From the NCBI RefSeq assembly GCF_054482595.1, contig NZ_CM137008.1: a stretch of DNA of 64,000 nt; one strand, given 5' to 3'. A model generated the notes under the pieces. That model made no database searches and was not told where the DNA came from. It was given only the letters and a program-made list of their open reading frames with translations. The position numbers and the translations under genes were made by a program. This document shows, in pieces, positions 2,667 through 59,501 of the stretch; positions within the stretch are counted from its first letter, which is position 1; each line of letters starts with the position of its first letter.

Positions 2667-3926
2667 TCAACCAATCCCCATGCTTTCAGCCAGTGCTTCC
2701 AGCGCCTGTTCAAAACACGCCAGCGGTGCCCGCACGGTGCCTGCGCCAATCTGCCCGATCCCCGCCTCTTTATGGGCAATACCGGTATTGATGAGTGGCG
2801 TAATGCCGGTTTCTACCACGCGACGAATGTCCAGCCCCAGGCACGCGCCCTGAAAATCCCAGCTTGGGATCTGCAACTGCATATTGCGTTCAAGGTAAAT
2901 TTCCGCCATCTCTTCAGATACCGCCCTGGCCGCTTCCATGCCACCCGCACCGACAAAGCGCGTTACGCCAGGCGCTGCGATCATTGCCGCACCTCCGATA
3001 CCAAAGGTTTCGGTAATCGCGCTATCGCCCATATCCGGGTTCGCCTGCTCCTGCGAGAAGCCGGTGAAAAACAGACCTTGCGGAGTGTTTACAGGCGCAG
3101 TAAACCAGCGTTCGCCCAGCCCGCTTACCCGAATCCCGAACATATTACCGTTGCGGGTCATTGCCGTGACGATGCTGCCTGCGCGGATCATCGCGCCAGC
3201 ATCCATCGCCGCCTTGCAGTAAGCCATCGCGAGGTTGAGGAAGAACTGATCGGTCACGCTGAGGAAATCCATCACTTCCGCGATGTGCTGTTTATCATGA
3301 TCGAGGCGAGCAATTTGTGGGGCCAGCGCACGCATTAACAGTGCTGAGGAAGCAATATTGCGTTGATGGAACTCATCGCCCATCGTAATGCCCTGCGCCA
3401 TCATCGCGGTAAGATCGATACCGCGCTCCATGCGCCCCAGCGCCGCGCTTAATACTGGCATTAACACATCGCGCATCCAGCGATGGCGAGTCAGGACATC
3501 TTCGCCGTAAGCGCCAAAACGCATCACTTTGCCGATACCTTCGTTGAGGTTGCAGTACGCCCGGTTGCCGTCGGTCACGTTCTCGACCACCAGCATCGGC
3601 ATACTGGCAGAAGTAATACCGCCCATTGGCCCGACGGCATTCACATGGTGACAAGGAATGAAGTTCACTTCCCCCTGCTCCAGTATTGCCAGCGCCTGCG
3701 CTTCATCTTTCGCCCAACCTTCGAACAGACATGCGCCCACGCACGCCCCTTTCATGGGTCCGGTCATCTCCTGCCAGCGCATTGGCGGCCCGGCGTGAAG
3801 CAGTGTTTTGCCCTGGTTTAGTTCGCTGATAAGTGAAGAAGCCGGTTGCACATCCAGCCAGTGTGGACGAGCGCGACGAATTTGTTCGATAACCGCAGCA
3901 TTGGCTTGCGCCACTGATGTAAACAT
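2667..3926 (-). CDS. ylbE: DUF1116 protein, intact 419 aa
   Basis: Uninterrupted 419-aa ORF between fdrA and ylbF. Confidence 0.85.
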
Positions 3927-9022: not shown

Positions 9023-9064
9023 GTCATACCACTCGCCTGATTATTTTTAGCTATGTTGGATTTT

Positions 9065-9091
9065 GCCACGGTTTATACCGTGGCTTTTTTT
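9065..9091 (+). terminator. rho-independent terminator after allE
   Basis: Hairpin gccacgg-tttata-ccgtggc followed by a T7 run. Confidence 0.6.
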
Positions 9092-9099
9092 GTAACATT

Positions 9100-9204
9100 G
9101 CCTGATGCGCTTCGCTTATCAGGCCTACATGATCTCTGCAATATATAGAATTTGCGCGATTTTCAGGAAGGATATAGTGCTCATGCAGCATCCGGCATGA
9201 GCAC
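9100..9204. repeat. REP-like palindrome plus a second 27-bp dyad in the allE/glxK convergent gap
   Basis: gcctgatgcgcttcgcttatcaggcctac at 9100-9128; gtgctcatgc...gcatgagcac at 9178-9204. Confidence 0.5.
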
Positions 9205-28256: not shown

Positions 28257-30671
28257 TCACCCCGCAAACTGCCTGAACAGCGCCTTACCCTTAACCAGTC
28301 GCGCACCCAGCCAGCCGCCGAAAAGCGACAGCAGCAGCGCTCCGCTGCACGGCAGAACAATCCACAATCGCCAGTCTGGCTCCCACGGAAAATCAAACAC
28401 TTTCGCCTGCAACACTGCCAGCGCCGTTTCCGCACCAATTGCGGCCACCAGGCCGGAAACAAACCCAAGCATGGCGAACTCACACCACAACGTGGTACGC
28501 AGCAGTTTTTTCCCCGCACCGAGTGTGCGCCACACCACCAGCTCCTGGTGGCGCTGACGCATACCCACCTGCACCTGTGCCAGCAACAGCAACATACCGC
28601 AGGCGGTGACCAGCACCACCATCACCTCCAGCGCCCGACTTACCTGCTCCAGCACCTGACCGACCTGTTTTAAAATCGCGCCAATGTCTAACAGGCTAAT
28701 GGTCGGGAACTGGCGGTTGAGTTGCGTCAACATGCCGTTGCCATTCTCCCAGCGGAAACTGGTAAGCCAGCTCTGCGGTTGCCCGTCTAATGCCCCTTCC
28801 GGGAAAATAAAATAGAAATTAGGCCGCAGACTTTCCCAGTCCACTTTGCGCAGGCTGGTCACTTTAGCGCGGAACTCCTGGGTATCGCCCATAAAAGTCA
28901 CGGTATCACCGAGGGCAACCTTTAAGCGTTTCGCCAGCCCCTCTTCCATCGACACTTCATCGGCTTTTGGCGGCCAGTTACCGGCGACAATCGGATTATG
29001 ATCGGGCCGCGTATTTTGCCAGGTAAGATTGAGTTCGCGGTTAAGCGCCTCATCTTCATTACCTTCTGTCGGCTTATCGTTAATCGCCGTCAGCCGCGCC
29101 CGCACCACCGGATAAAACGATTCCGGGACTATCTGATGTTCCGCGAGGAACGCTTTTAGCGGTGCTACCTGTTCTGTGGCGATGTTAATTAAAAAGTAGT
29201 TCGGGCTTTCTGGAGGTAGCTGCTGCTGCCAGCGGTCGAGCAGATCACCACGCAACACCAGCAGCAGTGCCAGCAGCATAAAGGAGAGCGAAAATGCCGA
29301 AAGCTGGCTTAACGTTGACCACGGCTGACGTAACAGGCGGCTGACCGCCAGGCGCAGAGGCAGCGATTTCAGCGTCATGCGGCGAAGTACATTCAGCAGC
29401 ATCCAGCCCAGCACACCGCACAGCAAAGCCAGTACTACCGCGCCCGCCAGCACCGCCCAGAGCAGCATACTGCCCCCCATTAATCCGGCGAGCAGCAGCA
29501 CAACCACTACACTGACAATCGGCAGATAAAACTTCAGCGGCCAGACGTTCGCTACCACATCATTACGTAATACGCGTAAAGGCTGCGTTGCCAGCAACAA
29601 GCGGTATGGTCGTAGCCCCACCAGCAGCGAGATGACCGTCATGGTGCCCAGCGCCCATAGCCACGGCCAGAGGCTGGCTGGCGGTAGTGCAGCAGGCAGA
29701 ACGGGCTTGAGCAGCACCATCAACACGTTTTCGAACAACAGGCCTATCGCCCCACCGGTAACGGCTGAAAGCGTCAGCACCATCAACCACTGACCGACGA
29801 TTAGCTTACGCAGTTGCGCTCGCCCTGCCCCCAGCGTTTTGAGGATCGCCACCAGATCGTAGCGACTGCGACAGTAATGATTCATCGCTACCGCCACTGC
29901 TGCCACTGCCAGCAGCAAGGTCAGAAGCGCCGAAAGCAGCAGGAACTGTTGCGAGCGTTCCATCGATCGCCCCAGCGCGCCTTCGTCCTGTTCCAGACCG
30001 TACCAGCGTTGTTCGGGTTTAAGCTGGGGTAACAACCATTTCTCATAGCCGTCGAGCTGGTTCTCGTTGCCGCCGAATTTATAACGCCAGGTGACCCGAC
30101 TCCCCGGCTGCACGGCTCCGGTTTTATCGACATCCGCCAGATTCATCATCAGACGCGGAGCCATCTGGAAGGGGTTAAAACCGGAATCCGGTTCCTGAAT
30201 CACTTCTCCGGCAATCCGCAAGGTGGCATCGCCCACGTCAATGGTGTCGCCCGTTTTCAGGTTAAGCAGCGCCATCAGGCGTGGGGCCAGCAATACGCTG
30301 CCCGCCTGCGGTTTCAGGCCAGGGGGATTAGTTTGCAGATCGCCATACATCGGGTAGATATCATCCACCGCTTTGACGTTCGCCAGCTGCGGTGTGTCGC
30401 CTGCAAATGTCATGGTGGCGAAAGTCAGCTGCTTGCCGACTTTCAGGCCGCGCTTTTGCGCTTCCTCCAGCCATGCTTGCGGCACTTCGCGCGAACTGCG
30501 CAACGCCCGATCGCCCGCCATAAACTCCCGGCTTTGTTGGCTTAAGCCCTTCTCCATGCGATCGCTGATATTGCCCAGCGCCAGCACGCAGGCCACCGCC
30601 AGGCTTAGCGCCAGCCAGACAATTAATAGCGACGGCGAACGCCATTCGCGCCAGAACCAACGTGCAATCAT
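28257..30671 (-). CDS. ybbP: ABC transporter permease, FtsX/MacB-like
   Basis: 804-aa membrane ORF; 4-nt overlap with upstream ybbA. Confidence 0.9.
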   Translation of the reverse strand: MIARWFWREWRSPSLLIVWLALSLAVACVLALGNISDRMEKGLSQQSREFMAGDRALRSSREVPQAWLEEAQKRGLKVGKQLTFATMTFAGDTPQLANVKAVDDIYPMYGDLQTNPPGLKPQAGSVLLAPRLMALLNLKTGDTIDVGDATLRIAGEVIQEPDSGFNPFQMAPRLMMNLADVDKTGAVQPGSRVTWRYKFGGNENQLDGYEKWLLPQLKPEQRWYGLEQDEGALGRSMERSQQFLLLSALLTLLLAVAAVAVAMNHYCRSRYDLVAILKTLGAGRAQLRKLIVGQWLMVLTLSAVTGGAIGLLFENVLMVLLKPVLPAALPPASLWPWLWALGTMTVISLLVGLRPYRLLLATQPLRVLRNDVVANVWPLKFYLPIVSVVVVLLLAGLMGGSMLLWAVLAGAVVLALLCGVLGWMLLNVLRRMTLKSLPLRLAVSRLLRQPWSTLSQLSAFSLSFMLLALLLVLRGDLLDRWQQQLPPESPNYFLINIATEQVAPLKAFLAEHQIVPESFYPVVRARLTAINDKPTEGNEDEALNRELNLTWQNTRPDHNPIVAGNWPPKADEVSMEEGLAKRLKVALGDTVTFMGDTQEFRAKVTSLRKVDWESLRPNFYFIFPEGALDGQPQSWLTSFRWENGNGMLTQLNRQFPTISLLDIGAILKQVGQVLEQVSRALEVMVVLVTACGMLLLLAQVQVGMRQRHQELVVWRTLGAGKKLLRTTLWCEFAMLGFVSGLVAAIGAETALAVLQAKVFDFPWEPDWRLWIVLPCSGALLLSLFGGWLGARLVKGKALFRQFAG

Positions 30672-31354
30672 GCTTCCTCCTGCAACTGCCCGTTCACCAG
30701 CCGTAAGCAGCGGTCGCAGCGTGCCGCCAGTTGCAGGTCGTGGGTCACCATAATCAACGTGGTGCCATGTTCACGGTTGAGGGAAAACAGCAGGTCGGCA
30801 ATTTTATCGCCCGTCTGGCGGTCAAGGTTGCCGGTGGGTTCGTCGGCAAACAGCACATCAGGTCGACCATTAAAGGCTCGTGCCAGCGCCACTCGTTGCT
30901 GTTCACCGCCGGAAAGCTGTGCCGGAAGATGATCCAGACGTTTACCCAGCCCTAACTGTTCGAGCAACGCTTTCGCCCCGTTACGACTTTCCGCGCTACT
31001 CTCACCGCGCAGCAGAGCCGGAAGCTCGACGTTTTCCAGCGCGTTAAGGGTAGGAATTAACATAAATGACTGAAAAACAAAGCCGACGTGCTTCGCGCGC
31101 AACTTTGCCCGCGCTTCTTCGTCCATATTATGTAGCGGTTGTCCCACCAGACTCACTTCGCCACTGCTGCCGTCATCAAGCCCGGCGAGGATCGCCAGCA
31201 AGGTTGACTTACCCGATCCCGACTCGCCCACCAGTGCGATGGTCTCGCCACGTTTGACAACCAGCTCAACTCCGGTGAGGATGGAGAGTTCATGCTCCCC
31301 CTGACCGACGGACTTCTTAAGATGATGAACTTCAACAATGTTTTCCGCTGGCAT
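30668..31354 (-). CDS. ybbA: ABC transporter ATP-binding protein
   Basis: 228-aa ORF with Walker A GESGSGKST and LSGGEQQR signature. Confidence 0.9.
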   Translation of the reverse strand: MPAENIVEVHHLKKSVGQGEHELSILTGVELVVKRGETIALVGESGSGKSTLLAILAGLDDGSSGEVSLVGQPLHNMDEEARAKLRAKHVGFVFQSFMLIPTLNALENVELPALLRGESSAESRNGAKALLEQLGLGKRLDHLPAQLSGGEQQRVALARAFNGRPDVLFADEPTGNLDRQTGDKIADLLFSLNREHGTTLIMVTHDLQLAARCDRCLRLVNGQLQEEA

Positions 31355-31948
31355 TTGCCCTTCCTGTTCCTGGTCCTGTTAACCTTCCGTGCCGCCGCAG
31401 CGGACACGTTATTGATTCTGGGTGATAGCCTGAGCGCCGGGTATCGAATGTCTGCCAGCGCGGCCTGGCCTGCCTTGTTGAATGATAAGTGGCAGAGTAA
31501 AACGTCGGTAGTTAATGCCAGCATCAGCGGCGACACCTCGCAACAAGGACTGGCACGCCTTCCGGCTCTGCTGAAACAGCATCAGCCGCGTTGGGTGCTG
31601 GTTGAACTGGGCGGCAATGACGGTTTGCGTGGTTTTCAGCCACAGCAAACCGAGCAAACGCTGCGCCAGATTTTGCAGGATGTCAAAGCCGCCAACGCTG
31701 AACCATTGTTAATGCAAATACGTCTGCCTGCAAACTATGGTCGCCGTTATAATGAAGCCTTTAGCGCCATTTACCCCAAACTCGCCAAAGAGTTTGATGT
31801 TCCGCTGCTGCCCTTTTTTATGGAAGAGGTCTACCTCAAGCCACAATGGATGCAGGATGACGGTATTCATCCCAACCGCGACGCCCAGCCGTTTATTGCC
31901 GACTGGATGGCGAAGCAGTTGCAGCCTTTAGTAAATCATGACTCATAA
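31322..31948 (+). CDS. tesA: thioesterase I / lysophospholipase L1 (GDSL hydrolase)
   Basis: 208 aa from ATG 31322 (MMNFNNVFRW); signal peptide then GDSLSAGY; ORF track extends 10 codons upstream. Confidence 0.9.
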   Translation: MMNFNNVFRWHLPFLFLVLLTFRAAAADTLLILGDSLSAGYRMSASAAWPALLNDKWQSKTSVVNASISGDTSQQGLARLPALLKQHQPRWVLVELGGNDGLRGFQPQQTEQTLRQILQDVKAANAEPLLMQIRLPANYGRRYNEAFSAIYPKLAKEFDVPLLPFFMEEVYLKPQWMQDDGIHPNRDAQPFIADWMAKQLQPLVNHDS

Positions 31949-32747
31949 AGCAACGGAGATCCTGACAGGTAAAGTTATGCAAAAATCGGTCTTAATTACC
32001 GGATGTTCCAGTGGAATTGGCCTGGAAAGCGCGCTCGAATTAAAACGCCAGGGTTTTCATGTGCTGGCAGGTTGCCGAAAACCGGATGATGTTGAGCGTA
32101 TGAACAACATGGGATTTACCGGCGTGTTGATCGATCTGGATTCACCAGAAAGTGTTGATCGCGCAGCAGACGAGGTGATCGCCCTGACCGATAATTGTCT
32201 GTATGGGATCTTTAACAATGCCGGATTCGGCATGTATGGCCCCCTTTCCACCATCAGCCGTGCGCAGATGGAACAGCAGTTTTCCGCCAACTTTTTCGGC
32301 GCACACCAGCTCACCATGCGCCTGTTACCCGCGATGTTACCGCACGGTGAAGGGCGTATTGTGATGACATCATCGGTGATGGGATTAATCTCCACGCCGG
32401 GTCGTGGCGCTTACGCGGCCAGTAAATATGCGCTGGAGGCGTGGTCAGACGCACTGCGCATGGAGCTGCGCCACAGCGGAATTAAAGTCAGCCTGATCGA
32501 ACCCGGTCCCATTCGTACTCGCTTCACCGACAACGTCAACCAGACGCAAAGTGATAAACCAGTCGAAAATCCCGGCATCGCCGCCCGCTTTACGTTGGGA
32601 CCGGAAGCGGTGGTGGACAAAGTACGCCATGCTTTTATTAGCGAGAAGCCGAAGATGCGCTATCCGGTAACGCTGGTGACCTGGGCAGTAATGGTGCTCA
32701 AGCGCCTGCTGCCGGGGCGCGTGATGGACAAAATATTGCAGGGGTGA
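31938..32747 (+). CDS. ybbO: short-chain dehydrogenase/reductase
   Basis: 269-aa ORF; TGCSSGIG NAD(P)-binding motif. Confidence 0.88.
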   Translation: MTHKATEILTGKVMQKSVLITGCSSGIGLESALELKRQGFHVLAGCRKPDDVERMNNMGFTGVLIDLDSPESVDRAADEVIALTDNCLYGIFNNAGFGMYGPLSTISRAQMEQQFSANFFGAHQLTMRLLPAMLPHGEGRIVMTSSVMGLISTPGRGAYAASKYALEAWSDALRMELRHSGIKVSLIEPGPIRTRFTDNVNQTQSDKPVENPGIAARFTLGPEAVVDKVRHAFISEKPKMRYPVTLVTWAVMVLKRLLPGRVMDKILQG

Positions 32748-42269: not shown

Positions 42270-43010
<741 letters not shown>

Positions 43011-43512: not shown

Positions 43513-44307
43513 ATGGATCTGTTGTACCGGGTAAAAACGCTTTGGGCCGCGCTGCGCGGTAATCATTACTCCTGGCCTGCCATCGATATCACCCTCCCCG
43601 GCAATCGCCATTTTCATCTGATTGGCAGTATTCATATGGGTAGCCACGATATGGCTCCCCTGCCCGCCCGTTTGCTCAAAAAGCTCAAAAACGCCGATGC
43701 GCTGATCGTCGAGGCGGATGTTTCCACCAGCGATACGCCTTTTGCTAATTTGCCTGCCTGCGAGGCGCTGGAAGAGCGTATTAGCGAGGAGCAATTACAA
43801 AATCTGCAGCACATTAGCCAGGTGATGGGCATTTCTCCGTCACTCTTTTCTACCCAACCGCTGTGGCAAATCGCGATGGTTCTTCAGGCGACGCAGGCAC
43901 AAAAACTGGGGCTGCGGGCAGAATACGGTATCGATTACCAGTTATTGCAGGCGGCGAAGCAACAACATAAACCCGTGATTGAACTGGAAGGGGCTGAAAA
44001 CCAGATTGCCATGTTGCTCCAGCTCCCTGACAAAGGACTGGCGCTGCTGGACGATACGCTGACCCACTGGCATACCAACGCACGGTTGCTGCAACAAATG
44101 ATGAGCTGGTGGCTGAATGCGCCGCCGCAAAATAATGAAATAACGCTGCCCAATACGTTCAGTCAGTCGCTGTACGATGTGCTGATGCATCAGCGAAATC
44201 TCGCCTGGCGGGATAAATTACGCGCCATGCCGCCGGGGCGATATGTGGTCGCGGTCGGTGCACTACACCTGTATGGAGAAGGGAATTTGCCGCAAATGTT
44301 GCGCTAA
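43513..44307 (+). CDS. ybaP: TraB/GumN-family protein
   Basis: 264-aa ORF; synteny. Confidence 0.88.
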   Translation: MDLLYRVKTLWAALRGNHYSWPAIDITLPGNRHFHLIGSIHMGSHDMAPLPARLLKKLKNADALIVEADVSTSDTPFANLPACEALEERISEEQLQNLQHISQVMGISPSLFSTQPLWQIAMVLQATQAQKLGLRAEYGIDYQLLQAAKQQHKPVIELEGAENQIAMLLQLPDKGLALLDDTLTHWHTNARLLQQMMSWWLNAPPQNNEITLPNTFSQSLYDVLMHQRNLAWRDKLRAMPPGRYVVAVGALHLYGEGNLPQMLR

Positions 44308-44389
44308 AAAAATGGCCAATATCGCTATTGGCCCGTCAAAGAGGAATTTCATTTTTTTATTATTATGCCGTCACTTTAAGCGACGGTGT
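44306..44389 (-). ncRNA. chiX: ChiX (MicM/SroB) Hfq-dependent sRNA
   Basis: Minus strand reads ACACCGUCGCUUAAAGUGACGGCAUAAUAAUAAAAAAAUGAAAUUCCUCUUUGACGGGCCAAUAGCGAUAUUGGCCAUUUUUUU, 84 nt, matching remembered ChiX. Confidence 0.85.
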
Positions 44390-50040: not shown

Positions 50041-50149
50041 GCCGGATGTAAAATATGAAAAATATGTAGGCATGATAAGACGCGCCAGCGTCGCATCGGG
50101 CATCGAGAGCCAAATGCCAGATGCGGCGTGAACGCCTTATCTGGCCTAC
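50041..50149. repeat. REP/BIME element between convergent ybaL and gsk
   Basis: REP-family palindromes gccggatg...gtaggcatgataagacgcgccagcgtcgcatc...gcggcgtgaacgccttatctggcctac. Confidence 0.7.
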
Positions 50150-57569: not shown

Positions 57570-59501
57570 TCAAATGGGGCGGATACTTTCTTCATCCAGC
57601 TCCGCATCGAAGAACCGACGCAGGGTCTGAATATTATTATCCGCAATAATGGACTCGCGCGCCTGCGCAAGTTTTTCTTCGTATATCGCCTGACGCCACT
57701 CCAGCGGCGTACGCACCGCGGGATTATCATCTTCAACGATAGTCAGTTCAACCGTTGAACCTTTTAACGTGCTCAACGCTTCAGCCAGTTTTTGCTGTGC
57801 ACCGCGGTTGTTCAAATGCCGCTGAGAGGAGCGCAAATGCAGACATACTGCGTTGTCGCTCTCCTCTTTCCAGGCATTTAAGGCCACCTGTTCGACCAGT
57901 TTTGGTAGCGAAAGTTGACTCACCTGTGCCGCCCACGCGTCGCGCTCAATGGCTTCTGCCGCCAGCTTCGCCGCCAGTTCCGGCGTTTTTTCATGTTCCA
58001 GCGCTTTTTTCAGCGCCTTCGGCGTGGCGACCACTTCTTTTTGCTGCATCACTGGAGTGGTAGCCTTCCAGCGATACGCTTCTTTTTTGGCTGGCGCTTT
58101 TTCCAGCGCCGATGGCACCGGACGCGCCTGAACGCGATCGGTGACCGAAGCCAGTCTTTCCAGCGCAGCGTTATTCACCGGCCGCGCGCGGGTAGCGGCT
58201 GCCGGTTCACTCTTTTTTGCTTTGGTTGCTCCCTGCACGCGCTGCAACTGCTGGCGCGCCGCCAGCACCTGGCTGGTGGTTTCCGGGAGCGGTACAGTCG
58301 GTGCCTGCTGCGGCGCTGATTGCGGTTGCGGCGGCACCTGGGTTGGCGTCATTACTGCCGTTGGCGCGACGGGCGCAAAGGACTGGCGTGGCACTTCTGG
58401 CTCAGGCAGAGGCATACGTGGATGGAACGCCAGCGCGCGCAGCAGCGTCATCTCAACGCCCATGCGGCGGTCCGGCGCATACGGTAATTCTTTGCGACCA
58501 ATCAACAGCGTCTGATAGTAAAGCTGAATATCCGTCGGCGGTATGGTGCGCGCCAGTTCACGCATCCGCAGCTCAATGGCGGCCATGTCGTTGCCAAGTG
58601 CAGCAGGCGAAAGTTGTACCATCGCAATACGATGCAACAGGCCGAGCATTTCCACCAGCAACGCTTCCCACTCGATACCACGGGCAGCGGCTTCATTAAT
58701 CAGCGCCATTACGCGCTCGCCGTTGGCCTCGACCATCGCTTCAACCAGCGACAGCGCCTGATCGTCGTCAAGCGTACCCAGCATCGCACTGACTGCCTGG
58801 GTTGAAACCTGGCCGTCACCGCTGGCAATCGCCTGGTCGGTCAGACTTAAGGCATCTCGCAGGCTGCCTTCAGCGGCGCGCGCCAGCAATTGCAACGCCC
58901 GCGGCTCGTGAGCGATATGTTCTTCGTTGAGGATGTGCTCAAGTTGATGGCGAATTTGCTCGACATCCAGCGCCTTGAGATGAAATTGCAAACAGCGCGA
59001 CAAAATCGTCACCGGCAATTTCTGTGGATCGGTCGTCGCCAGCAGAAACTTAACGTGCTCCGGCGGCTCTTCAAGGGTTTTTAACAGTGCGTTAAAGCTG
59101 TGGCGCGACAGCATATGCACTTCGTCGATCAGATAAACTTTGAAACGACCACGCGCCGGAGCGTACTGGACGTTATCCAGCAGGTCGCGGGTATCTTCAA
59201 CTTTGGTGCGCGAGGCGGCGTCGATTTCAATCAGATCGACAAAGCGCCCCTGCTCGATTTCACGACAGTTATCGCACACGCCGCACGGCGTCGCGGTAAT
59301 GCCGGTTTCGCAGTTTAGCCCCTTCGCCAGCAGTCGGGCGATAGAGGTTTTTCCGACGCCACGGGTACCGGAAAAAAGATAAGCATGATGAATACGCCCT
59401 AACGACAAGCCGTTCGCCAGTGCGGTCAGCACATGTTCCTGGCCGACGACGTCAGCAAAGGTTTGTGGGCGCCATTTTCGGGCTAAGACCTGATAACTCA
59501 T
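57570..59501 (-). CDS. dnaX: DNA polymerase III tau subunit (gamma made by -1 frameshift)
   Basis: 643-aa ORF; AAA+ Walker A GTRGVGKTS; internal frameshift signal at 58176-58218. Confidence 0.95.
   Translation of the reverse strand: MSYQVLARKWRPQTFADVVGQEHVLTALANGLSLGRIHHAYLFSGTRGVGKTSIARLLAKGLNCETGITATPCGVCDNCREIEQGRFVDLIEIDAASRTKVEDTRDLLDNVQYAPARGRFKVYLIDEVHMLSRHSFNALLKTLEEPPEHVKFLLATTDPQKLPVTILSRCLQFHLKALDVEQIRHQLEHILNEEHIAHEPRALQLLARAAEGSLRDALSLTDQAIASGDGQVSTQAVSAMLGTLDDDQALSLVEAMVEANGERVMALINEAAARGIEWEALLVEMLGLLHRIAMVQLSPAALGNDMAAIELRMRELARTIPPTDIQLYYQTLLIGRKELPYAPDRRMGVEMTLLRALAFHPRMPLPEPEVPRQSFAPVAPTAVMTPTQVPPQPQSAPQQAPTVPLPETTSQVLAARQQLQRVQGATKAKKSEPAAATRARPVNNAALERLASVTDRVQARPVPSALEKAPAKKEAYRWKATTPVMQQKEVVATPKALKKALEHEKTPELAAKLAAEAIERDAWAAQVSQLSLPKLVEQVALNAWKEESDNAVCLHLRSSQRHLNNRGAQQKLAEALSTLKGSTVELTIVEDDNPAVRTPLEWRQAIYEEKLAQARESIIADNNIQTLRRFFDAELDEESIRPI
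58176..58218 (-). other. dnaX programmed -1 ribosomal frameshift site (slippery heptamer plus stem-loop)
   Basis: Minus strand GCA AAA AAG AGU GAA CCGGCAGCCGCUACCCGCGCGCGGCCGGUGAA; -1 frame reads GAG then UGA. Confidence 0.85.

Follow-up and report, generated by a model that had tools for sequence, protein, structure and literature searches.

The genes tesA and ybbA lie head to head in the 64,000-nt stretch of Escherichia coli DNA analysed here (contig NZ_CM137008.1 of assembly GCF_054482595.1; the whole stretch is called the window below), and their products belong to the YbbAP-TesA complex described in E. coli K-12 MG1655 (PLoS Biol 2025, PMC12646458). In that work, TesA binds YbbP, TesA and YbbAP form one complex, and the tesA-ybbO operon "partially overlaps" ybbA-ybbP, a linkage that recurs in other Gram-negatives. 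The locus described there is identical to that of the window, with no difference, and start-codon choice, codon constraint and the geometry of the junction in other species are outside its treatment.

The same pair appears among the 16 divergent excludons that an RNA-seq survey with ExcludonFinder gives for MG1655 (NAR 2025, PMC12288877). Divergent excludons overlap at their 5' ends, which is the geometry of tesA-ybbA; however, typical excludons overlap in untranslated leaders, whereas tesA and ybbA overlap in the coding sequences themselves. Transcript overlap is therefore automatic if both genes are expressed, and the excludon label is nearly automatic as well. The function of an excludon is defined by reciprocal expression and RNase III processing, and tesA-ybbA was listed as one from RNA-seq coverage.

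As to overlapping genes in general, the divergent orientation is the rarest, having 331 cases against 12,737 co-directional ones in 58 genomes (Lillo & Krakauer 2007, PMC2174442), and represents 1% of the well-characterised overlaps of 338 genomes (Palleja et al. 2008, PMC2478687). Among short divergent overlaps, the E. coli tesA/ybbA pair has the phase 123:321, whereas the CATG junction found in other species (see below) has 123:213, the commonest divergent phase. Most long divergent overlaps have been ascribed to mis-called starts, but tesA/ybbA passes the tests of orthologue length and conservation and stays below the 60-bp line. The coliphage 186 promoters pR and pL are placed face to face (convergent), with transcriptional interference between them. 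The likeness to tesA/ybbA is that of promoters firing toward each other over a shared segment; here, in contrast, the segment codes on both strands, and the facing promoters follow from the gene layout and not from a pair of transcription start sites (TSSs) or from promoter strengths.

In the window, tesA and ybbA very probably form a genuine head-to-head overlap of two protein-coding genes, having ybbA start at ATG 31354 on the minus strand and tesA at ATG 31322 or 31325 on the plus strand. The original prediction had placed the two starts at 31322 and 31354, with 33 bp in common, and both positions hold and match the MG1655 annotation; depending on which of the two adjacent tesA ATGs is used, the length would be 33 or 30 bp. 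The overlap is already known from the reference annotation and a mention in the literature. The window comes from the E. coli chromosome. Of 5426 complete E. coli genomes, 5417 contain a match to a 401-nt probe, with 95-100% identity, and the features under these matches carry the names tesA and ybbA. In the MG1655 reference (NC_000913.3), tesA (b0494) is complement(519139..519765) and ybbA (b0495) is 519733..520419, which gives the same 33-bp overlap at 519733..519765; the conversion is one-to-one (MG1655 position = 551087 - window position). A K-12 derivative annotated with PGAP has tesA from the second ATG (window 31325, 207 aa), with a 30-bp overlap. The main features are:

31322..31354, both strands: head-to-head coding overlap of 33 bp (30 if tesA starts at 31325), from the sequence, the list of open reading frames (ORFs), the annotation and synonymous-site freezing.
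31322..31948, plus strand: tesA coding sequence, thioesterase I / protease I / lysophospholipase L1 precursor, 208 aa, from the ORF list, the annotation and matches to the PDB.
30668..31354, minus strand: ybbA coding sequence, ABC ATPase of the YbbAP type VII transporter, 228 aa, from the ORF list and PDB 9GE6-8.

From 31319, the plus strand reads AAG ATG ATG AAC TTC AAC AAT GTT TTC CGC TGG CAT TTG, with ATG at 31322 and again at 31325, and with the CAT at 31352-31354 being the ATG of the minus strand. Both ORFs are real protein genes, since the structures of TesA and YbbA have been solved with identical sequence (1IVN, 9GE6-8) and homologues are abundant.

The main evidence for dual coding comes from synonymous sites. 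In the overlap, tesA codons 1-11 (MMNFNNVFRWH) are antisense to ybbA codons 1-11 (MPAENIVEVHH); M1 and M2 of tesA pair with H11 and H10 of ybbA (CAT), and W10-H11 of tesA is antisense to M1-P2 of ybbA. In this phase, a silent third-position change hits the first codon position of the partner, and so both genes hold the bases of the overlap almost fixed. The loci of 80 species were fetched with a TesA profile, and synonymous-codon identity, the fraction of sequence pairs with the same codon given the same amino acid, was computed over the 21 Enterobacterales species. It amounts to 0.91 for codons 1-11 of ybbA and to 0.90 for codons 1-10 of tesA, whereas the remainder of both genes has 0.43-0.46, a contrast in agreement with the predicted tight constraint on codon usage at both N-termini. 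The control, ybbP codons 3-13, has 0.47, and a generic effect of 5' ends is therefore not the cause. Reduced synonymous change in both frames, in the overlap only, is the signature of dual coding. In ybbA codons 12-21 the identity is 0.66, which would fit a leader or Shine-Dalgarno (SD) function. Alignment of three divergent E. coli genomes confined their differences to positions outside 31322-31354.

An open antisense frame alone is unsurprising here, as only TTA, CTA and TCA codons in ybbA yield stops in this phase, and the tesA frame is open for 38 codons upstream of 31322. Across the aligned loci, it is the conservation that lifts the overlap above chance, namely the ATG kept in 21 of 21 loci and the suppressed synonymous variation in both genes. 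In all 21 Enterobacterales, one or both of the positions YbbA His10/His11 are encoded by CAT and never by CAC; outside Enterobacterales, the equivalent YbbA positions are not His. This fits with the two His codons being held by the tesA ATG.

The ybbA start at ATG 31354 is unambiguous. Between it and an in-frame TAA nine codons upstream there is no other start codon, and the first in-frame alternative downstream is a GTG, one codon ahead of the Walker A motif. The ATG is preceded by a Shine-Dalgarno sequence with a duplex energy of -7.0 kcal/mol:

31358..31364, minus strand: ybbA Shine-Dalgarno GGAAGGG, 3 nt before the ATG (GGAAGGG-CAA-ATG), in tesA codons 13-15 (CCC TTC C), from the sequence.

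Sequence like CCCTTCC, the antisense of this element, is kept across Enterobacterales. The chains of PDB 9GE6-8 comprise YbbA residues 1-228, and LolD, MacB and MJ0796 align from YbbA residue 4-9 with their own residues 2-8, so that the N-terminal length of YbbA is canonical.

The tesA frame opens in the ORF list at ATG 31292 and its stop ends at 31948. Gene callers disagree on the start, and public protein sets contain products of 218, 208, 207 and 197 aa. The candidates and the signals downstream or upstream of them are:

31292, plus strand: ATG, 63-bp overlap, SD -8.4 kcal/mol, 218-aa precursor.
31322, plus strand: ATG, 33-bp overlap, SD -3.2 kcal/mol, 208 aa.
31325, plus strand: ATG, 30-bp overlap, SD -3.2 kcal/mol, 207 aa.
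31355..31357, plus strand: TTG abutting the ybbA start (CAT, then TTG), 0-bp overlap, SD -1.5 kcal/mol, 197 aa.
31308..31313, plus strand: weak SD-like ACGGAC for tesA, 9 nt before ATG 31322, in ybbA codons 14-16, -3.2 kcal/mol.
31322..31399, plus strand: TesA Sec signal peptide, 26 codons, with the mature protein starting at Ala27 (31400), from the solved chains and the sequence.

The ATG of M(M)NF is the one candidate present in each of the 21 Enterobacterales loci, as MM in 15, TM in four and ML in two, and therefore either of the E. coli ATGs can suffice. The SD-like region has raised synonymous conservation (0.65-0.75). From 31322, the precursor has, judged by eye, the three parts of a Sec signal, namely a positively charged n-region MMNFNNVFR, a hydrophobic h-region LPFLFLVLLTF (within WHLPFLFLVLLTF) and a c-region RAAA with small residues at -3/-1, followed by ADTLL. 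The PDB chains 1IVN and 9GE8_T match TesA residues 27-208, the solved chains beginning at residue 27 (ADTLL). A tesA start at or after the ybbA ATG leaves 15 or fewer uncharged residues before the cleavage site. A later start in either gene, which the original prediction had named as removing the overlap, was looked for: ybbA has none before the Walker A region, and tesA has only a non-conserved TTG lacking a Shine-Dalgarno. Neither gene has an entry in the TRAINSPOTTER supplement, and literature searches on the tesA start codon or signal sequence gave nothing relevant.

In the human blood isolate E. coli AF57 (NZ_OZ546943.1, locus L083), the tesA signal-peptide codons carry an 8-bp deletion (GTCCTGTT) between CCTG repeats, which aligns to window 31373-31380; PGAP marks tesA as frameshifted there and ybbA is intact.

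The junction was also compared across Gammaproteobacteria. Directly upstream of tesA, 79 of the 80 species with a TesA homologue have a divergent Walker-A gene. The distance D runs between the opening bases of two codons, that of GDS in tesA and that of the Walker-A Gly in ybbA, which makes it independent of annotation, and the overlap equals 3(n_ybbA + n_tesA) - D + 1. D is 193 or 196 in the 21 Enterobacterales loci. Outside Enterobacterales, the ybbA ATG and an in-frame tesA ATG share a palindromic CATG, a 2-bp overlap, in 38 of 58 species, and these 38 loci differ in their N-terminal lengths, of which there are 21 combinations, while D ranges from 194 to 305. Examples are L027, L028, L042 and L072 (of L022-L081), where the CATG lies about 70-150 nt upstream of position 3001 in the locus. 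The 29 CATG loci outside Pseudomonas have GGA/AGGAG 5-6 nt before the tesA ATG, and also a conserved TTTCC at +10 to +15, which is the antisense of the ybbA Shine-Dalgarno and accounts for the conserved Ser/Pro at TesA residue 6. In these 29 loci, TesA starts at or near the ybbA ATG. The nine Pseudomonas loci have the CATG, yet a Met four codons downstream has the better Shine-Dalgarno, which leaves a 10-bp gap; this downstream Met agrees with the signal peptide of 21 residues that has been reported for TesA of P. aeruginosa. If CATATG and CATnnATG are included, 46 of the 58 non-Enterobacterales loci have starts that overlap or lie no more than 2 bp apart. Real spacers are found in Aeromonas (57-60 bp), Marinobacter (about 100 bp), one Salinicola (Salinicola tamaricis, 442 bp), Methylophaga and Porticoccus.

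The 22 Enterobacterales-type loci all give a D mod 3 of 1, and 44 of the 58 others give 2; YbbA keeps 41-42 codons before Walker A in both Vibrionaceae and Enterobacterales. Taking the polarity from this distribution, our reading is that the relative frame of the two genes shifted at the junction in the ancestor of Enterobacterales, and that an ATG 10-11 codons upstream was taken into use. The resulting 11-residue extension of the Enterobacterales TesA signal peptide looks like a case of overprinting, written antisense to codons 1-11 of ybbA: the outgroups lack it, the underlying ybbA codons are homologous there, and the frame change accompanies the new start. The CATG junction and the antisense origin of the signal-peptide extension seem to be modest additions, undescribed in the literature examined.

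Four loci of this comparison are unusual. In Shewanella electrodiphila (L071) and an uncultured Enterobacterales metagenome-assembled genome (L026), the sole canonical candidates for a tesA start ahead of a plausible signal peptide imply overlaps of 35 bp and 39 bp, which may be independent cases or non-canonical starts. Candidatus Pantoea persica (L020) has no recognisable Walker-A motif upstream of tesA, and in Vibrio mexicanus (L029) the tesA frame upstream of GDS has only 24 codons and no ATG; decay, sequencing error or an unusual start could explain these two.

The arrangement in E. coli leaves no room for separate control regions. The distance from the active-site GDS codon of tesA to the ybbA Walker-A codon is only 193 nt, with no intergenic spacer, and it has to hold the 42 codons that YbbA needs before Walker A as well as the TesA signal peptide and seven mature residues before GDS. 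With no DNA between the starts, the ribosome-binding site, leader and promoter of each gene lie inside the coding sequence of the partner and the promoters are face to face. The original prediction had these signals within the partner genes, and they were located there, the ybbA Shine-Dalgarno in codons 13-15 of tesA and the tesA leader from codon 12 of ybbA onward. Together with a probable promoter, this leader would fall within ybbA codons 12-34. The mRNAs of tesA and ybbA would be complementary over at least 33 nt plus both leaders, or over several hundred nt if a weak TSS at about 31695 corresponds to the ybbA promoter. Facing promoters and complementary mRNAs would permit RNA polymerase collision and antisense pairing, and the overlap might then have a regulatory effect on the amounts of TesA and YbbAP. 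The mutual interference suggested at first is plausible.

The promoter elements that can be proposed are the following:

31254..31282, plus strand: candidate tesA promoter, TTGACA (31254-59), 17-bp spacer, GAGGAT (31277-82), in ybbA codons 24-34, proposed from conservation.
About 31694-31696, minus strand (element 31694..31733): weak TSS from the part of the Cappable-seq table covered (PMC4782308 supplement), U00096.2 position 518615, score 2.45.

The first is the best candidate for tesA, with a predicted TSS at about 31288 and a leader some 33 nt long. Of the 21 Enterobacterales, 17 keep TTGACA and the other four (two Photorhabdus, Providencia, Morganella) have TCGACA; the -11A, -8A and -7T of GAGGAT are kept in all 21. 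The sliding profile of synonymous constraint has a second peak of 0.7-0.8 at ybbA codons 29-34, coincident with TTGACA. On the ybbA side, a computational search for a promoter gave nothing that stands out. The sequence TTGCAG-17-AACAAT (31733-31705, minus strand) lies upstream of the weak TSS. The window position of this TSS uses a coordinate shift from U00096.2 to version 3 that we take to be +776 to +778, and it may be 2 nt off. Within the portion of the Cappable-seq table covered, which represents part of one strand, there are three ybbA-strand TSSs, all weak, and none for tesA, and this one is the sole TSS reported on the ybbA strand between about 31695 and the ybbA ATG. The supplement of Romero 2014 and that of SMRT-Cappable-seq have no entry for tesA/ybbA, and the portion covered of the genomic SELEX list of constitutive RpoD promoters has none for the tesA-ybbA junction (PMC3946193). 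Both genes seem to be weakly transcribed under laboratory conditions.

Two other arrangements were considered and set aside. A back-to-back bidirectional promoter is a shared symmetric -10 region between divergent TSSs. It was rejected here because there is no DNA between the starts, any promoter lies inside the partner and hence faces the other, and no symmetric element was found. A symmetric operator at the CATG was dropped, as the mean of mirrored complementary positions is 8.2 of 30 against a random expectation of 7.5.

Several points weigh against an overlap that both codes and regulates as described. An RNA-level or regulatory constraint, and not tesA coding, could in principle cause the synonymous freezing; the invariant tesA ATG argues in favour of coding. 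The strongest Shine-Dalgarno of the tesA frame by far (GAGGATGGAGAG, -8.4 against -3.2 kcal/mol for 31322) belongs to ATG 31292, and that start may see some use within E. coli; mature TesA is silent on which Met is used, because the signal peptide is cleaved. As to transcription, a scan of 30900-31800 for consensus promoters and terminators gave no promoter-like site. With a sigma-70 position weight matrix (PWM), the best tesA-side scores are 9.3 and 8.4 (8.4 being TTGACA/GAGGAT) and the best on the ybbA side is no higher than 5.1, all within the background of random 245-nt windows (median 6.3, 90th percentile 8.8, 95th percentile 9.2), so that the promoter calls follow from conservation and not from PWM score. 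The nearest ybbA-strand TSS in the portion of the Cappable-seq table covered is about 340 nt upstream of the ybbA ATG, inside tesA, and a mapping experiment directed at the 5' end of ybbA yielded no product (PMC2760140); transcription over the overlap may therefore be low and the interference negligible. The mutually exclusive expression of the excludon model fits poorly with TesA and YbbAP being partners of one complex.

These points bear first on the role of the overlap. That it is real yet a frozen accident, lacking a regulatory role and with both genes expressed weakly and independently, is a view to which we give only slightly less than an even chance. With no non-coding DNA between the anchors, indels must be multiples of three, and the junction would persist by ordinary purifying selection; spacers have been regained in some lineages (Aeromonas, Marinobacter, Salinicola tamaricis), which means that a tight junction can be dispensed with; the signals of TSSs are weak or lacking; and co-expression, not mutual exclusion, is to be expected of proteins that form one complex (PMC12646458). 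On the other hand, the 46 of 58 non-Enterobacterales species keep their starts overlapping or within 2 bp over the 21 N-terminal length combinations, and overlapping transcription was called for tesA-ybbA in 50% or more of 58 RNA-seq samples (PMC12288877), neither of which is a proof of function. The opposite proposal, that the spacer-free junction is a selected control module coupling the output of the two operons that build the TesA-YbbAP machine, is considerably more doubtful. Coupling could then occur through pairing of the 5' ends, mutual masking of ribosome-binding sites, or collision of polymerases between the facing promoters; the module would take the form of the shared CATG with each Shine-Dalgarno in the first codons of the partner in most Gammaproteobacteria, and of the 30-33-bp overlap in Enterobacterales.

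Two other readings concern the extent of the overlap itself. A tesA start at ATG 31292 (precursor MLPLTDGLLKMMNF..., 218 aa), with a 63-bp overlap and the annotated Met internal, is improbable. Besides its Shine-Dalgarno, it has in its favour that the position is ATG in 12 of the 21 Enterobacterales and GTG/TTG in three more, that some gene callers give the 218-aa TesA, and that synonymous conservation is moderately raised in ybbA codons 12-21. That value of 0.66 is, however, well below the 0.91 of the true overlap and therefore too low for the 63-bp version to be coding under the same constraint. In 5-6 of the loci the upstream ATG is missing or gives way to a stop: no start codon occupies the equivalent position in Citrobacter FP75, Photorhabdus caribbeanensis, Edwardsiella or Morganella, and in Rahnella a stop immediately precedes the MM. 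The start would also give a 21-residue n-region including an acidic residue, the candidate promoter with its TSS at about 31288 would leave the Shine-Dalgarno of 31292 out of the mRNA, and in the 338-genome survey every divergent overlap longer than 60 bp was a misannotation by 5' extension (PMC2478687).

A tesA start at TTG 31355, with no coding overlap and the upstream ATGs being the antisense image of two ybbA His codons, is the least probable of all: its 197-aa product appears in many automatic predictions, an abutting or 2-bp-overlap junction is the common state outside Enterobacterales and an open frame is expected by chance in this antisense phase, but TTG/GTG stands at that position in just 9 of 21 Enterobacterales (TGG, TAC, TAT, CTC, TTA, ATC or TTT in the others), its Shine-Dalgarno is absent (-1.5 kcal/mol), its signal peptide (M)PFLFLVLLTFRAAAA has no charged n-region, and it leaves unexplained the CAT codons of His10/His11, at residues that are not His in homologues outside Enterobacterales, as well as the frozen third positions of ybbA codons 1-11 against the unfrozen ybbP control.

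Both genes are followed by a close co-directional neighbour:

28257..30671, minus strand: ybbP coding sequence, permease, from the ORF list and the annotation.
31938..32747, plus strand: ybbO coding sequence, from the ORF list and the annotation.

At window 30668-30671, the ATG of ybbP and the stop of ybbA have 4 bp in common (ATGA), the classic geometry of translational coupling. This ATGA geometry was picked up in 16 of the 21 Enterobacterales, an earlier GTG/TTG having been chosen by the script in the remaining five; four of these retain the Met of MI(W/V)RWFW a few codons in, and Edwardsiella (L018) has Val there. On the other side, the ybbO start precedes the tesA end at window 31938-31948, which gives an 11-bp overlap within the tesA-ybbO operon, and the ybbO ATG has no detectable Shine-Dalgarno (+0.7 kcal/mol). 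A scan of the whole window with Rfam gave no match at the tesA/ybbA junction. Elsewhere in the window, it found the DnaX ribosomal frameshifting element (58173-58237, minus strand, 96.8 bits), which places dnaX in the window, and a tandem array of seven naRNA4 (CssrE) matches with a spacing of about 101 nt (42324-43007, minus strand), as well as an isolated copy (50069-50146, minus strand); three of the naRNA4 (CssrE) matches also score on the plus strand. Small RNA matches include sroB (44306-44389), STnc480 (9029-9095) and ES036 (9121-9163), all on the minus strand.

The finding brings nothing new to the reference annotation of E. coli, and its practical value is that of a warning. Within codons 1-11 of either gene, recoding, a knockout, a CRISPRi guide or a "silent" mutation alters the partner, and a tesA deletion made from the start codon takes out the ybbA start, its Shine-Dalgarno and probably its promoter, and likewise in reverse. 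This is relevant to fatty-acid engineering strains in which tesA is manipulated and to the genetics of YbbAP-TesA. The locus also offers two natural examples, one of the evolution of a spacer-free divergent pair, with the CATG junction held over the 21 N-terminal length combinations, and another of part of a signal peptide that would have arisen from the antisense strand of a neighbour. The junction would have greater importance if it were true that it sets the TesA:YbbAP ratio.

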